Below are positions 30,471 through 36,476 of a DNA stretch of 64,000 nt, piece after piece. Source of the stretch: Methanobacteriota archaeon (GTDB lineage: Archaea; Thermoplasmatota; Thermoplasmata; SG8-5); assembly GCA_013791785.1 (NCBI GenBank), contig VMTD01000061.1, positions 898 to 64,897 of the forward strand, given 5' to 3'. Within the stretch, counting starts at the first letter, position 1; each line of letters begins with the position of its first letter. Under the pieces are notes generated by a model that was not told where the DNA came from, searched no databases, and saw only the letters and a program-made list of their open reading frames with translations. A program made the position numbers and the translations under genes.

Positions 30471-31481
30471 ATGGCTAAGAACAAAAAACTACCAGACAAC
30501 CAGATAACGGTTTACCAAACTCCAGATGGTGAAATTAATATTGAAGTGATGTACGTCAATGAAAATCTCTGGATGCCTCAAAAAAGAATGGCGGAGCTTT
30601 TTGGTGTAGAACGAAGTGTTGTTACCAAGCACCTGAAGAATATCTTTTCGGATAATGAGTTACAGAAAGATTCAGTGTGTGCAAATTTTGCACATACTGC
30701 CGAGGATGGCAAGGAATATCTGACTAATTTTTATTCTCTTGAAGCCATCATTGCCGTAGGTTACCGGGTAAATTCGGAACGTGGCATTCAGTTTCGACAA
30801 TGGGCGATTTCAATTCTCCAGCAATATATTCACAAAGGATTTGCGATTGACAATGACCGATTTAAACACGGCTCCCGTTTCAGCACGAGATATTTCGATG
30901 ACTTGCTGGAGGAGATACGTGACATCCGCTCCAGTGAAAGGATGCTGTATCAGAAAATAACTGATATTTATGCTACATCTATTGATTATTCTCTAAAAAC
31001 TGAGGACACAAAACAGTTTTTTGCGACAGTACAGAATAAACTGCACTTTGCCATTACTGGGCAGACCGCTGCAGAAATAATATCTGCACGGGCCAAGAGC
31101 GACAAGCCAAACATGGGATTGACATCATGGCGAAAAGGGCATGGGGGTAAAATCATGCCAGGTGATGTTATCATAGCAAAAAACTATCTGGATAAACAGG
31201 AGCTTGATCATTTAAACCGCATTGTAACCTTGTATCTTGATTATGCGGAGCTGCAAGCGGTTCGTAATAAACCCATGTACATGAAAGATTGGACTGAAAA
31301 ACTGAACGCTTTTCTGAAGTTCAGCGAATATGAAATACTTACCAATGCAGGGACAATCAGCCATGAAGTTGCTCTTGCCCTGGCTAACAAAGAATATGAA
31401 ACATTCAAGAAAATTCAGGATACAAATTATCTCTCGGATTTTGATAAAGAGGTTAAAAGGGTTAGAGAGTGTAAGAAATGA
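30471..31481 (+). CDS. RhuM-family protein (Virulence_RhuM domain), a common marker of mobile and defence islands.
   Basis: N-terminal region ITVYQTPDGEINIEV...NLWMPQKRMAELFGVERSVVTKHLKNIF matches the RhuM/Fic-associated DNA-binding family. The coding region is AT-rich. Confidence 0.65.
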   Translation: MAKNKKLPDNQITVYQTPDGEINIEVMYVNENLWMPQKRMAELFGVERSVVTKHLKNIFSDNELQKDSVCANFAHTAEDGKEYLTNFYSLEAIIAVGYRVNSERGIQFRQWAISILQQYIHKGFAIDNDRFKHGSRFSTRYFDDLLEEIRDIRSSERMLYQKITDIYATSIDYSLKTEDTKQFFATVQNKLHFAITGQTAAEIISARAKSDKPNMGLTSWRKGHGGKIMPGDVIIAKNYLDKQELDHLNRIVTLYLDYAELQAVRNKPMYMKDWTEKLNAFLKFSEYEILTNAGTISHEVALALANKEYETFKKIQDTNYLSDFDKEVKRVRECKK

Positions 31482-31984
31482 TTGAGACTGAAAGACTGTA
31501 CCTGAGACTGATGAAAGAATCAGACACTGACGATATGCTGGGTATATTCAATGAACCCAAATTAATGAAAGCATTTGGTTTTGAGTCCTTTTCCAGAGAG
31601 CAAATGATACGATGGGTGAGTAGAAATCTCCAGTATCAAGAAAAGTATGGCTACGGTTTATTTTCTGTCATTCTGAAAAGCAATGGAAAATTAATTGGAG
31701 ATTGCGGTCTGGAATGCACGACTTTTGAAGGAAATGAATGTATTGAGATTGGGTATGATTTTTCCAGTGTTTATTGGAATCAGGGCTATGCGACAGAAGC
31801 TGCTTCAGCGGTCAGGGATTTTTCCATCAATGACCTGAACATTGATTCCAGGCTTTTGTGTAGTTTTATCCGAAAAATAAATGCCCCATCAATTAGGGTA
31901 TCTCAGAAAATTGGCATGAAAAAGACAAAAGAATACTCTCAAAATGGAATTGAATATTATCTCTATCAGTTTCCACCGCCCTGA
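31478..31984 (+). CDS. GNAT N-acetyltransferase (RimJ/RimL-like).
   Basis: It overlaps the RhuM-family stop. GNAT motifs are present and the region is AT-rich. Confidence 0.7.
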   Translation: MIETERLYLRLMKESDTDDMLGIFNEPKLMKAFGFESFSREQMIRWVSRNLQYQEKYGYGLFSVILKSNGKLIGDCGLECTTFEGNECIEIGYDFSSVYWNQGYATEAASAVRDFSINDLNIDSRLLCSFIRKINAPSIRVSQKIGMKKTKEYSQNGIEYYLYQFPPP

Positions 31985-32055: not shown

Positions 32056-32448
32056 ATGGACAGCAGAGTCAAGAACATGTTCGCAGACGAGAAAATAAAA
32101 TTCGGAGTACTGGCCGAAGCATTTCCGGGCATGAAGGAATACTTCGAGGGAACGAAACCCGGCAGAATAAACCGGTATGACAACGGCGTCATGAGCATTG
32201 TCATCAACGGCCAGGGCAAGGAAAAGCCCTCGACGTTCGGGTACCTACCAGTGGGAAGATTCGTGTTCAACGTGGGAGGCAACCGGGAGACCATGCATTT
32301 CCTCCACGGCGAGATTGACTGGGGCTTTGGAAAGAACCCGACTGTTAGACCAAAGCAATATGACATTCTGGTGATTCCCGCAGGCGAGGATTTAATCCTG
32401 AACGTTAAGAAACCGACGCTCTACGTTTGCGATTATCTGAAACAATGA
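32056..32448 (+). CDS. Small cupin-like hypothetical protein (130 aa).
   Basis: Short beta-rich protein with HFLHGEIDWGF...LVIPAGEDL. Its stop overlaps the radical-SAM gene start as ATGA. Confidence 0.4.
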   Translation: MDSRVKNMFADEKIKFGVLAEAFPGMKEYFEGTKPGRINRYDNGVMSIVINGQGKEKPSTFGYLPVGRFVFNVGGNRETMHFLHGEIDWGFGKNPTVRPKQYDILVIPAGEDLILNVKKPTLYVCDYLKQ

Positions 32449-33317
32449 AAAAGATTGTTTTGGCTTCCCACCTGGCTCATTTCGAACTGAAGAGAAAGCT
32501 CACAGGAATTAAATACTTCGCTGAAATCGACATCACCGACAATTGCAATCTCAGGTGCGGCCATTGCTATCACTTTCACGGCAAGAACGTTTTCGAGAAA
32601 AAAGAATTGCCCCTGGGGGTTTGGAAAAAGCGGTTCAGAACGCTTCACAGAGGGGGAATTCGATGCGTTCTGCTGGTTGGCGGCGAACCCGCCCTCAGGG
32701 CAGACGTGCTAATGCTGGCCCACAATATTTTTCCGTTTGTATATGTGATTACCAACGGTACAGTTTTCATCCCGAAGAAGTTCAATCATCTTCTTTTCGT
32801 GTCGCTGGACGGCATGCGGGAGACCAATGATATAATTCGCGGACGCGACACATTCGACAGAGTTTTAAAGAATTATTCAGGAGATAAGCGCGTCGCCATA
32901 AACATGACCATAACCATGGACAATTACAGGGAACTGGAGAACGTTGTTCGCCTTTCCAAAAAACACGGGTTCAGAGGCGTGGTGTGCAATATCTGCGCAT
33001 CGGGAACAGACGTAAAAGTACCCATGCACATCAAGGCCGATGAGAGAAAAACAGTCATGAAAGAGCTGAGGCGCGTTAAAGAAAAATATCCGAAGCAATT
33101 TTTGCTCAGCGATGCCATGCTCAGGTGGTATGAAAAAGCGGACCATCGCGGCAGATGCTACTGGGGCGATGATGTACTGCATTTTGATGTGAACTGGAAA
33201 AAAAGGCGGTGTTTCGGCTCCAATGCGGACTGCTCGAACTGCGGATGCCTGGCAGGCTCTTTCCAGAACCCGTTTTTAATGGCTTTTACCGCCAAGGAGT
33301 TCAGGAAATTGGTTTGA
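32445..33317 (+). CDS. Radical SAM enzyme with a C-terminal Cys-rich auxiliary-cluster (SPASM/twitch-like) domain.
   Basis: CNLRCGHCYHF is a CxxxCxxC motif. A SLDGMRETNDIIRG motif is present. The C-terminal cysteines are C-x17-C-x6-C-x2-C-x-C. The start was placed at the ATGA overlap (MKKIVLASH). Confidence 0.7.
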   Translation: MKKIVLASHLAHFELKRKLTGIKYFAEIDITDNCNLRCGHCYHFHGKNVFEKKELPLGVWKKRFRTLHRGGIRCVLLVGGEPALRADVLMLAHNIFPFVYVITNGTVFIPKKFNHLLFVSLDGMRETNDIIRGRDTFDRVLKNYSGDKRVAINMTITMDNYRELENVVRLSKKHGFRGVVCNICASGTDVKVPMHIKADERKTVMKELRRVKEKYPKQFLLSDAMLRWYEKADHRGRCYWGDDVLHFDVNWKKRRCFGSNADCSNCGCLAGSFQNPFLMAFTAKEFRKLV

Positions 33318-33351
33318 AAATGCTTATAAGGTCCATCATCTTTCCAGAATT

Positions 33352-34122
33352 ATGGTGTTCCCGAACTATCCGAACAAACAGTCCGAAAAGGCTTTGTTCA
33401 GTCCGTCTGATTTCATGGAATATGCAAAGAAGAGAGGCCAATACCCGACGATTGAACCGCCCGATGGACTGATCCTTTGTTATGACAGGAATCTGCTTGC
33501 GTTCATCCTGGCCAACCACAAGACAACTGTAGCGAGGATTTTCGGAGAGGTTCATGTTCTGGATGAAACTGAGGGGAAGATTGCCATTGCCAGCGTTCAC
33601 GGAATTGGCGGGCCATGCGCTGTCACCACCATGGAGGAGAAGATCGCGTTCGGGATCAACAAGTTCATTTCCATTGGCCTAGCTGGCTCCCTCCAGAAAA
33701 GCATTGGGATCGGCGATATCGTTGTATGCGACAGGGCGATAAGGGACGAGGGCGTTTCCCACCATTATCTGGAGAGTTCAAAGTATGCCCATGCCTCGGA
33801 GGAGATGACGAAACGCATCAAGAGTTCGTTGGACAAGTTGGGTATCGAATATGTTACAGGCACCAGCTGGACCACAGATGCCGTGTACCGGGAAACGACC
33901 GCCGAGGTTTCCCAGTATCAGAAAGATGGCGTGGCAACCGTGGAAATGGAGGCCGCCGCGCTCTTCGCGGTGGCCCAATACCGCAAGGTCCAGATTGGTT
34001 CGATACTGACTATAAGCGATTCGCTGGCTGACATGAAATGGCAGCCCGAGTTCCATTCCGAAAATGCGAAAACGGGTTTGGAAAATCTTTTCAAGGCAGC
34101 AGTCAACGCCTTGTTGATGTGA
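33352..34122 (+). CDS. PNP/UDP-family nucleoside phosphorylase or nucleosidase (MTA/5'-deoxyadenosine nucleosidase-like).
   Basis: Motifs GIGGPCAVTTMEE, DIVVCDRAIRDEG, VEMEAAALFAVA and ILTISD are typical of PF01048. Confidence 0.65.
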   Translation: MVFPNYPNKQSEKALFSPSDFMEYAKKRGQYPTIEPPDGLILCYDRNLLAFILANHKTTVARIFGEVHVLDETEGKIAIASVHGIGGPCAVTTMEEKIAFGINKFISIGLAGSLQKSIGIGDIVVCDRAIRDEGVSHHYLESSKYAHASEEMTKRIKSSLDKLGIEYVTGTSWTTDAVYRETTAEVSQYQKDGVATVEMEAAALFAVAQYRKVQIGSILTISDSLADMKWQPEFHSENAKTGLENLFKAAVNALLM

Positions 34123-34571: not shown

Positions 34572-35336
34572 CTATTTCGGTGGACAATATCTCCCGATGA
34601 TGAACCAAGTCGGATATTGTGAGTACATGCCCATCACAAAATGGAAGTTGGTTTTTTCCAGCATTTTAATGAAATACTTATCTTGAAGCTTTTCCCAGAG
34701 AATTTCCGGGGTTTGATACCTCGGCCCCCAGCTCCTGTAAGATTCGAATAGTTCCCAGTCCTCGCACTGCATGTTATGCTCGCTTTCTCCGCAACACTGG
34801 CATTTGAATTTATACTTGAAAATGTGTGGTATTTTGGTAACTTTTGGAATGATTTCACCGTCGAGATTCATGGTGGCGGACCATCCGTTGTTCTCGTATA
34901 TTTCCAAATTGTCGGTTTTGATGAAATCCAGCAATTCTGTCGGTTTGATTAATCCAAGAGATGTTTTGTCTGTTTCATAGGCGTCTTTCAATGCTTGGAT
35001 GGAATTCGAAACATGAGGCAGTACAATCTTGTTCCTGGCATTCCAGTCAACCTTTGGTTTGGTTAAACTGCGGTCAATTATCGTAATTGAGTCTGGCCTT
35101 ACCTTGTGGCTCTCCTTTCTGCCGAGCTTGTCAGCGTCTTTCTGGCACATGACCTCTATGACATCAAATTTGGATATTTTGTTCTCCCCGATGAAATGTC
35201 GCATGTCAATCGGATAGAGCCTTATCCATTCCCCTTCATCGGTAATTCCTGCGGTACAGGCCACATCCCCATGTTTCAGGCTTGGTTCAGGATATGCCTT
35301 GGTGATAATGGTAATTCTTTTCTTTTCCCACGTCAA
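34572..35336 (-). CDS. Uncharacterised protein with a C-terminal CxC...C zinc ribbon. It is probably translationally coupled to the upstream gene through a TTG start.
   Basis: Non-repetitive sequence throughout. A TTG start overlapping the upstream TGA (TTGA) gives MTWEKKRITIITKAYPEP... The longer ORF running to 35654 overlaps the DUF488 gene and is rejected. The region is AT-rich. Confidence 0.45.
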   Translation of the reverse strand: MTWEKKRITIITKAYPEPSLKHGDVACTAGITDEGEWIRLYPIDMRHFIGENKISKFDVIEVMCQKDADKLGRKESHKVRPDSITIIDRSLTKPKVDWNARNKIVLPHVSNSIQALKDAYETDKTSLGLIKPTELLDFIKTDNLEIYENNGWSATMNLDGEIIPKVTKIPHIFKYKFKCQCCGESEHNMQCEDWELFESYRSWGPRYQTPEILWEKLQDKYFIKMLEKTNFHFVMGMYSQYPTWFIIGRYCPPK

Positions 35337-36166
35337 ACTATTACAACTCCTTTCTCTCTCCTTCCCAACTCTTCCGCCAGCACTGTCCTGTGGCACATCT
35401 CCGGATCCTTCTCGAAACACATCAATGCAATCTTCTTTTCTCTCCCCAGTCCAAGAAGCATATCCAATTCTTTCTCTTTCTTTGAAATGAATTTTCTGTA
35501 ATGTCTGAAAAGAGCATCGTAATCTTCCTTGGTTTCCAGCGTCTTCCTCAACTCGCTCGGAATGCCAACTTCCGGTAGACCGATGTATTCTACCCCCATC
35601 TTCCCGCAAAGGATGTTGAGAGATTTTCCGGTGAATCCGTATTTCATGCTCCACGGATTGTTTCGCACATCTACCAGAACCTGGATTTTTTCATCAATTA
35701 ATTTCATCATGAATTCATCGATGGACAATCCTTCATATCCAATTGTTATGATTCCAATTTCGTCCCGACTATAAGCCATTTTTTTCTTGATTTCACTGAA
35801 TATGGTATATTTTGGGTATTTTTCATAGGTGAATTCCACCATATCATTGTCATCCATTGATTTCGTTTCATCGAAAAAAAAGTCGACCATATTCATTGTA
35901 TCCTCTTGTAAATCAACGGTACCATTGATGAATTTAATGTTTGTGTCATCTGTTTCAATAATACCTTCTCTTTCCAGCATTTCCAGGTCATGAAACAATT
36001 CGAATGAATATGGACCGTACTTATAAGGAACGAAACCGTAAAATTTGAATTTCGTCAATGATTTATCCTTGCTCATCAGGAAGAATACCTTGGAAAGTTT
36101 CATTTTTGAGCATTGCCCGGATTGTTTTAAAAAATATACCAGGCATTTTTGTCTTGTATTCATCAT
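35333..36166 (-). CDS. Fusion protein: N-terminal Panacea (DUF4065/SocA-like antitoxin) domain plus C-terminal DUF488 domain.
   Basis: N-terminus KMKLSKVFFLMSK...YGFVPYKYGPYSFELFHDLEML is the Panacea pattern. C-terminus ITIGYEGLSIDEFMMKLIDEKIQVLVDVR...GVEYIGLPEVG...ALMCFEKDPEMCHRTVL is the DUF488 pattern. Confidence 0.55.
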   Translation of the reverse strand: MMNTRQKCLVYFLKQSGQCSKMKLSKVFFLMSKDKSLTKFKFYGFVPYKYGPYSFELFHDLEMLEREGIIETDDTNIKFINGTVDLQEDTMNMVDFFFDETKSMDDNDMVEFTYEKYPKYTIFSEIKKKMAYSRDEIGIITIGYEGLSIDEFMMKLIDEKIQVLVDVRNNPWSMKYGFTGKSLNILCGKMGVEYIGLPEVGIPSELRKTLETKEDYDALFRHYRKFISKKEKELDMLLGLGREKKIALMCFEKDPEMCHRTVLAEELGRREKGVVIV

Positions 36167-36445
36167 ATAAACGTGGTAAATCTCATCAAGGTATAAATAC
36201 CCTTATCGTGGGGGGTGGTGAAAGTGTTTGAATTGAACAATAAGTCTCAGACTGAGAGTTGCCAACCACACAACAATGCGAAGCTACAAAGAAAAGCCTC
36301 CTGTGCAAGATCCGTGTAATGGATTTCGCCCAGCAAGCGAGGGCCGGGCGAGTACCTGCCACCCCGCCCTCACGGGCGAGGCTTCATGATAGCAGTAATA
36401 ACATTGTCCATATCTGAAGGGGTGAATTCGCACTCGATTGAAAAA

Positions 36446-36476
36446 TGATTAAAAACCCCGGCCTCACAGCCGGGGC
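36446..36476 (-). terminator. Intrinsic-terminator-like hairpin (ccccggc ... gccgggg) plus T-run on the minus strand, downstream of the carboxylase operon.
   Basis: The minus-strand reading is gcatgccccggctgtgaggccggggttttt. Confidence 0.55.

Follow-up and report, generated by a model that had tools for sequence, protein, structure and literature searches.

The 64,000-nucleotide stretch analyzed here, hereafter the window, comes from a Methanobacteriota archaeon of the Thermoplasmata (GenBank assembly GCA_013791785.1, contig VMTD01000061.1, positions 898 to 64,897), and its minus strand encodes two overlapping genes, which we call A and B. Gene A (35333..36166) starts with ATG at 36166, stops with TGA at 35333-35335, and encodes a 277-aa protein in which an N-terminal winged-helix domain resembling Panacea and the C-terminal domain of DarG is fused to an "active" DUF488 domain; the database entry P0121, identical to A, bears the annotation "DUF488 domain-containing protein [Euryarchaeota archaeon]". 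Gene B (34572..35336), starting with TTG at 35334-35336, encodes a 254-aa protein that we assign to a divergent branch of the DuOB family. The A stop and B start codons share 35333..35336 (TTGA, reading GTTTGACG on the minus strand), an overlap indicative of the translational coupling that an initial annotation of this DNA, made without database searches, had proposed.

Screening against PADLOC placed both proteins in one candidate system. Protein A matches PDC-M19A (PDLC04505) with an E value of 1.6e-80 and 268.7 bits over residues 2-271, corresponding to profile positions 1-285 of 294, and protein B matches PDC-M19B (PDLC04508) with an E value of 2.8e-53 over residues 4-254, corresponding to positions 2-262 of 269. 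These full-length matches mean that an arrangement which the initial annotation did not recognize from the literature is already catalogued as a phage defense candidate. The suggestion of a toxin-antitoxin or defense module made in that annotation is a reasonable one. Candidates of the PDC class derive from guilt-by-embedding and are mostly unvalidated (Payne et al. 2024, bioRxiv 10.1101/2024.01.29.577857). We found no paper that mentions PDC-M19 by name in the searchable literature, and M19 is absent from the supplementary files of an archaeal-immunity survey.

Translated from the TTG codon, B begins MTWEKKRITI, an N terminus conserved in all B homologs. Among 60 related loci with both genes on the same strand, the equivalent start codon is ATG in 28, GTG in 12, and TTG in 7, and the two genes overlap by exactly 4 nucleotides in 46. 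The conserved N terminus, the start-codon usage of the relatives, and the recurrent overlap together support TTG as the real start of B; a 360-aa version beginning at an upstream GTG was rejected as merely the mechanically longest open reading frame (ORF). A TATA-like box, TATTTATAC, can be read at 36192..36200 on the minus strand, ~29 nucleotides upstream of the A start codon. The box and the TTTACCA that follows it are kept in the two most closely related loci (L001 and L002), whereas the sequence farther upstream diverges. This element is probably the archaeal promoter of an A-B operon whose mRNA would be leaderless or nearly so. The G+C content is 0.41 at positions 35001-36000, compared with about 0.52-0.56 in the flanks, which confirms the AT-rich composition described in the initial annotation.

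Domains and conserved residues of proteins A and B

The C-terminal domain of A (35357..35755, minus strand; residues about 138-270) matches PF04343 (DUF488) over residues 148-266 with 97.7 bits against a cutoff of 22.2, bearing out the DUF488 domain named in the initial annotation, and also matches PF22751 (DUF488-N3a, the "active" subclade) with 36.8 bits against a cutoff of 27. The AlphaFold2 model of A has a mean predicted local distance difference test score of 92.4, and its DUF488 domain has a predicted rhodanese-phosphatase-like fold matching phosphatases of the protein tyrosine phosphatase (PTP) type, with Cys, His, and Arg motifs of catalytic type set on a phosphatase-like Rossmannoid fold. 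Across 28 relatives, G143, Y144, G146, D166, R168, K175, C250-F-E252, and C258-H259-R260 are invariant and E145 is nearly so. The DUF488 domain may be a cysteine-dependent enzyme of the rhodanese-phosphatase superfamily.

The N-terminal domain of A (35771..36166, minus strand; residues 1 to about 132) is a divergent winged helix resembling Panacea (SocA/PanA, DUF4065) and the DarG C-terminal domain. The initial annotation had correctly called it Panacea/SocA-like. Protein A itself scores 18.2 bits (E value 0.005) against PF13274 (SocA_Panacea), below the cutoff of 25.7, but 9 of the 28 relatives match that model at E ≤ 0.01, and a profile built from the N-terminal domain (A3) retrieves stand-alone proteins of 130-180 aa that pass the Panacea cutoff, with E values of 1e-20 to 1e-12. 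These include P0424 (E value 2e-20) and P0505 (2.8e-12), which reach 26.9 and 25.8 bits, respectively, against PF13274; some of the proteins matched by the profile carry the Joint Genome Institute labels "phage-associated protein" or "YwgA". The DarG models of NCBIfam and PADLOC match the same N-terminal stretch, and the best structural match of the domain is the DarT-binding domain of DarG. The relationship to Panacea is thus real by profile comparison, although the score of A falls under the family cutoff. Family-invariant residues of this domain are K26, F29, Y43, F45, P47, Y48, G51, S54, F55, and D60.

The initial annotation could place protein B in no domain family. Its only reported Pfam match is at chance level and below cutoff, and we detected no match to PF22557 (DuOB, "dual OB-containing domain") at E ≤ 1. 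However, homologs 66-68% identical to B do match PF22557: P0034 (68% identical) scores 29.2 bits, above the cutoff of 27, and P0038 falls just under it with 25.3 bits. Six of 26 B relatives match the model at E ≤ 0.01, and B itself matches phrog_25907 with an E value of 2.9e-40. Through these close relatives, B can be assigned to the DuOB family as a divergent member. Its predicted model contains two oligonucleotide/oligosaccharide-binding (OB) folds resembling PriB, RPA, and SSB, so that B may bind single-stranded DNA (ssDNA) as those proteins do. PDB sequence searches returned no solved relative of DUF488 or DuOB, the only match being a marginal one to DarG.

Toward its C terminus, B carries a Cys/His cluster followed by a D-W-E motif (34752..34802, minus strand; C179, C182, H187, C191, E192, D193, W194, and E195). 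The cysteine cluster that had been described as a CxCC...C zinc ribbon is present, but its pattern needs revision: the window protein reads C179-Q-C181-C182...H187...C191, with C181 not conserved, and the set that is invariant in the close B subfamily is C179-x2-C182-x4-H187-x3-C191 followed by E-D-W-E. This cluster is probably a zinc site. An exhaustive profile search recovered 2232 clusters at 50% identity, 1305 of them at E ≤ 1e-10, almost all of which are stand-alone proteins of 250-290 aa. In 128 representatives of this wider family at 50% identity, C182 and C191 are not conserved and so are specific to the subfamily, whereas C179 is retained in 88%, H187 in 90%, D193 in 95%, W194 in 94%, E195 in 96%, and C27 in 98%. 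The near-invariant residues of the wider family are C27, R39, P42, R73, E75, S76, C179, H187, D193, W194, E195, and G236, with C27, R39, R73, E75, S76, H187, D193, W194, and E195 conserved at 90-100%.

Linkage, exchange, and decay of the pair across genomes

For the linkage survey, one genome per species was scanned in a search seeded from B, which yielded 68 loci encoding a B relative. The initial annotation had asked whether homologs of the two genes are adjacent in other genomes, and this linkage is pronounced: a DUF488 gene adjoins the B relative in 67 of the 68 genomes, the exception (L060) being cut by a contig end, and the full two-domain A lies directly upstream of B in about 55 loci. 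The pairing of DUF488 with DuOB is therefore close to obligate. Gene order is convergent or reversed in Asgard loci and in phages. Clustering the ORFs of the 68 loci revealed no third conserved gene; one apparent cluster was an antisense ORF artifact spanning the A/B junction and was rejected. B relatives occur mostly in Thermoplasmata, Methanotrichaceae, Methanomicrobiales, and Asgard and DPANN archaea, with a few in bacteria and actinophages, in a patchy distribution.

The strongest available argument that A and B work in physical contact is P0380, a 409-aa metagenomic representative in which DUF488-N3a (residues 14-131) and DuOB (residues 152-399) are fused in a single polypeptide. The DuOB part of P0380 lacks the Cys ligands of the window subfamily and retains the H...DWE signature.

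The N-terminal module of the DuOB-linked DUF488 proteins is exchangeable. Panacea-like in most loci, it is replaced by a MazE/AbrB-like module in L041 and L064 (sub-cutoff Pfam matches) and L042 (sequence resemblance), by a simple helix-turn-helix (HTH) in L038, and by ParB_N plus HTH_ParB in the Asgard locus L051 (strong Pfam matches) and in L054 (resemblance), and it is missing altogether from L062 and the Gordonia phages. All of the replacement modules are of DNA-binding or antitoxin type, and the DUF488 domain with its catalytic-type residues is constant. The Panacea-like domain is accordingly an accessory and not the core of the system. In the two Promethearchaeota loci, the ParB_N + HTH_ParB + DUF488 fusions (L051 1521-2585 and L054 6675-7850) lie just downstream of DuOB. 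A 2025 PNAS study (PMC12704722) reported CTP binding by an archaeal ParB-CTPase fold that is joined to DUF488-HTH.

Decay of the pair is one-sided. In 8 of the 68 genome loci (L045, L058, L062, L064, and L065-L068), B carries a truncation, a frameshift, or an interruption and A remains intact, and the reverse is seen in none. The lesions are a frameshift, an interruption of ~0.9 kb, or reduction to an N-terminal remnant of 22-57 residues; A beside the degraded B matches over its full length or up to the contig edge, the L065 copy being cut by the contig start. Nowhere in the 68-genome set does an intact B lack a DUF488 neighbor. This asymmetry hints that B is the costly or toxic partner and that A is required whenever B is present.

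Genomic surroundings of the pair

In Methanothrix, the pair is embedded in a type I restriction-modification operon in the order HsdR - A - B - HsdS, and an MNT/HepT pair lies upstream; such embedding is the signature by which PADLOC candidates were nominated. In another lineage, it lies beside MNT/HEPN, two ThsB-TIR genes, an HNH-HIT gene, and BglII. Seven Gordonia temperate phages encode a DuOB gene (27% identity, E value 9e-21) immediately after the immunity repressor, and a stand-alone DUF488 gene abuts it in convergent orientation between the integrase and cro. In phage Nymphadora (NC_031061.1; L069, 3030-5277), gp44 is the HTH immunity repressor, gp43 the DuOB homolog, and gp42 the stand-alone DUF488 protein. 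We considered gp44 as a possible Panacea-DUF488 homolog and rejected it, since this HTH repressor shows no similarity to A and the DUF488 gene is gp42. In one Gordonia phage record, the gp42-type DUF488 protein is annotated as "HipA toxin", which appears to be a misannotation.

In the lineage of the window, synteny of the pair with a carboxylase operon extends to two other metagenome-assembled genomes (MAGs), and the other side is variable. The flanking carboxylase operon shares 77-79% nucleotide identity with contigs of two MAGs, one assigned to Methanomassiliicoccales and one to Thermoplasmata, which makes the host a Methanomassiliicoccales-like member of the Thermoplasmata and not a Thermococcus. 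On the variable side, the window encodes RhuM, a GNAT gene, and a Ppnp/radical-SAM/PNP cassette. The RhuM-family gene (30471-31984, plus strand), about 3 kb from the A-B pair, was correctly named in the initial annotation and matches PADLOC PDC-S05 with an E value of 1.1e-141; its stop codon overlaps the start of the GNAT acetyltransferase gene, and this stretch has the lowest G+C content of the window (0.39-0.44). The cassette (32056-34122, plus strand) encodes a Ppnp-like phosphorylase (130 aa), a radical-SAM protein (296 aa), and a PNP_UDP_1 phosphorylase (256 aa), and could be a nucleoside-modifying accessory system. The radical-SAM gene overlaps the Ppnp-like gene, and its product has a weak PADLOC match to prokaryotic viperin (6.5e-10). 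Between the carboxyltransferase gene and gene A are two related G+C-rich hairpins with GTGA-type loops (36328-36382 and 36455-36476), the second followed by a T run on the minus strand. Inverted repeats upstream of A were considered as operators of the pair and rejected; none was convincing, and the strong hairpins resemble terminators of the neighboring carboxylase operon. We detected neither a tRNA gene nor any other integration landmark in the window.

Function of the pair and comparison with known systems

The domain identities, predicted folds, near-obligate linkage, single-chain fusion, exchange of the N-terminal module, and placement in defense and prophage-immunity contexts lead us to favor, with a probability of about one half, a conserved two-gene conflict module in which a DUF488 enzyme is paired with a nucleic-acid-binding DuOB protein, most likely antiviral or toxin-antitoxin-like. 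The full-length PDC-M19 matches, the patchy distribution, the A+T-rich composition of the window pair about 3 kb from a RhuM/PDC-S05 gene, and the one-sided decay of B also speak for it. Complex formation, ssDNA binding, the DUF488 chemistry, the identity of the harmful partner, and an antiviral role are inferred; the harmful or targeting role probably falls to B, and that of enzyme and regulator to A. Under such a mechanism, a single leaderless operon would supply A and B together, and the two proteins would assemble into a complex. B would bind single-stranded nucleic acid through its two OB folds and its Cys/His metal site, serving as the targeting and probably harmful component. The substrate of the DUF488 domain of A would be a nucleotide, or a phosphate or sugar-phosphate group at the end of a nucleic acid, and its reaction would either carry out or undo the effect. 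The Panacea-like winged helix would be an exchangeable regulatory or tethering module that may repress the operon or keep the complex inactive until infection.

Several observations weigh against the conflict-module interpretation. In the searchable literature we found no experiments on PDC-M19, DUF488, or DuOB, mentions of DUF488 being incidental, and domain searches revealed no recognizable catalytic or toxin domain in B. The broad DuOB family conserves many polar residues beyond what a plain ssDNA binder needs, so that "binder" may be too simple a description. Several loci lie among ordinary metabolic genes, and synteny with the carboxylase operon in two other MAGs indicates that the pair is not obviously mobile here. 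The decay asymmetry was derived from MAG assemblies by a B-seeded search, and in metagenome contigs L085 and L075 it is A that is split or shortened and B that is intact.

The best-surviving rival, which we nevertheless regard as doubtful, is a classical type II pair of the PanA/PanT kind, in which B acts as a protein toxin (by coating ssDNA it could, for instance, block replication), the Panacea domain of A binds and neutralizes B, and DUF488 is a passenger or a second-line enzymatic antidote like the macrodomain in DarG. An antitoxin-like domain encoded in the upstream gene of an overlapping pair, the homology of this domain to Panacea and its structural match to the DarT-binding domain, the classical antitoxin modules (MazE/AbrB and HTH) that stand in for it elsewhere, and the loss of B with persistence of A in eight loci are all consistent with this proposal. 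However, a domain that is absent from L062 and the Gordonia phages and replaced in other loci is dispensable, which argues against it as the sole neutralizer and makes a simple neutralization of PanT by PanA not the most economical explanation, whereas DUF488 is always present with its catalytic-type residues. The convergent or reversed gene order of the Asgard and phage loci, the lack of resemblance between B and any known toxin, and the size of the proteins (about 250-280 aa each, more than is usual in a type II pair) likewise count against it.

The near-invariance of C27, R39, R73, E75, S76, H187, D193, and E195 in the broad family raises the idea, less likely again, that DuOB is itself an OB-fold enzyme or toxin and DUF488 its enzymatic antidote, together carrying out a largely archaeal, reversible modification or damage of nucleic acid in the manner of DarT and DarG. 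Were this improbable proposal correct, it would link such chemistry to two protein folds with which it has not been associated before.

We attach a similarly low probability to a housekeeping role in archaeal nucleic-acid end processing or repair, in which an SSB-like partner recruits the DUF488 enzyme to ssDNA or DNA ends and conflict plays no part. The OB-fold partner does resemble SSBs of replication and repair, some loci lie among ordinary genes, for instance beside a RecJ-like DHH protein and a gene of the AP endonuclease 2 family, and three related Methanomassiliicoccales-type genomes keep the pair at a stably syntenic position. Against such a role stand a patchy distribution that crosses domains and includes phages, the embedding of the pair in type I restriction-modification operons and defense islands, its low G+C content relative to the host, the frequent pseudogenization of B, and the antitoxin-type N-terminal modules. 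Least likely is a function for mobile elements in place of host defense, as a maintenance or addiction, partition-linked, or anti-defense module of proviruses and plasmids: ParB_N + HTH_ParB-DUF488 fusions adjoin DuOB in Asgard loci, Gordonia phages carry the pair within their lysogeny module, both A and B have PHROG families, and DUF488 genes have been noted on Methanoperedens plasmids (PMC9674854), but a pattern search of 2.9 million IMG/VR viral contigs found no B relative, integrase or virus genes are not seen near most loci, and a position in the prophage immunity region is equally typical of prophage-encoded defense.

What is new here is the near-obligate DUF488-DuOB pairing, its fused form, the exchangeable antitoxin-like front end, and the placement in the Gordonia phage immunity region. 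The last offers a tractable experimental entry, the pair being carried by cultivable temperate phages. Little of archaeal immunity has been charted, and the majority of PADLOC candidates, PDC-M19 included, await experiment. If antiviral defense proves true, the very widespread DUF488 domain would gain its first assigned biological role, as would the DuOB fold; if not, the pair is an ordinary uncharacterized accessory operon.

Among known systems, a generic type II toxin-antitoxin operon shares with the window pair two genes overlapping at stop and start codons with the antitoxin-like gene first, and differs in that its proteins are typically smaller. DarTG has only the DarG C-terminal domain in common with A: neither A nor B contains a macrodomain or a DarT-like ADP-ribosyltransferase, the domain order is reversed, and A scores 21.3 bits against the NCBIfam DarG cutoff of 250. 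As in PanA/PanT and SocAB, the N-terminal domain of A is a remote Panacea homolog and the Panacea-bearing gene comes first in an overlapping bicistronic operon (Kurata et al. 2022, PMC8832971). Unlike in those systems, the Panacea-like domain of protein A shares its polypeptide with an enzyme domain and is exchangeable, B has no resemblance to any known toxin, and A falls under the PF13274 cutoff used for detection in the PanA survey (PMC8832971), the main text of which contains no occurrence of DUF488.

With the DUF488 and DuOB families, agreement is closer, as A carries a DUF488 domain of the "active N3" subclade (PF22751) and the predicted folds concur, PTP-like for the A domain and dual OB for B, although the window B lies below the Pfam reporting level for DuOB. 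The DUF488-N3 and DuOB models are said to originate with Burroughs and Aravind in 2023, who reportedly predicted conflict systems with DNA-end processing for the RapZ-C-DUF488-DUF4326 clade. No known system encloses the window copy; in all structural respects this copy agrees with PDC-M19, both component hidden Markov models of which are matched end to end by adjacent genes on the same strand.

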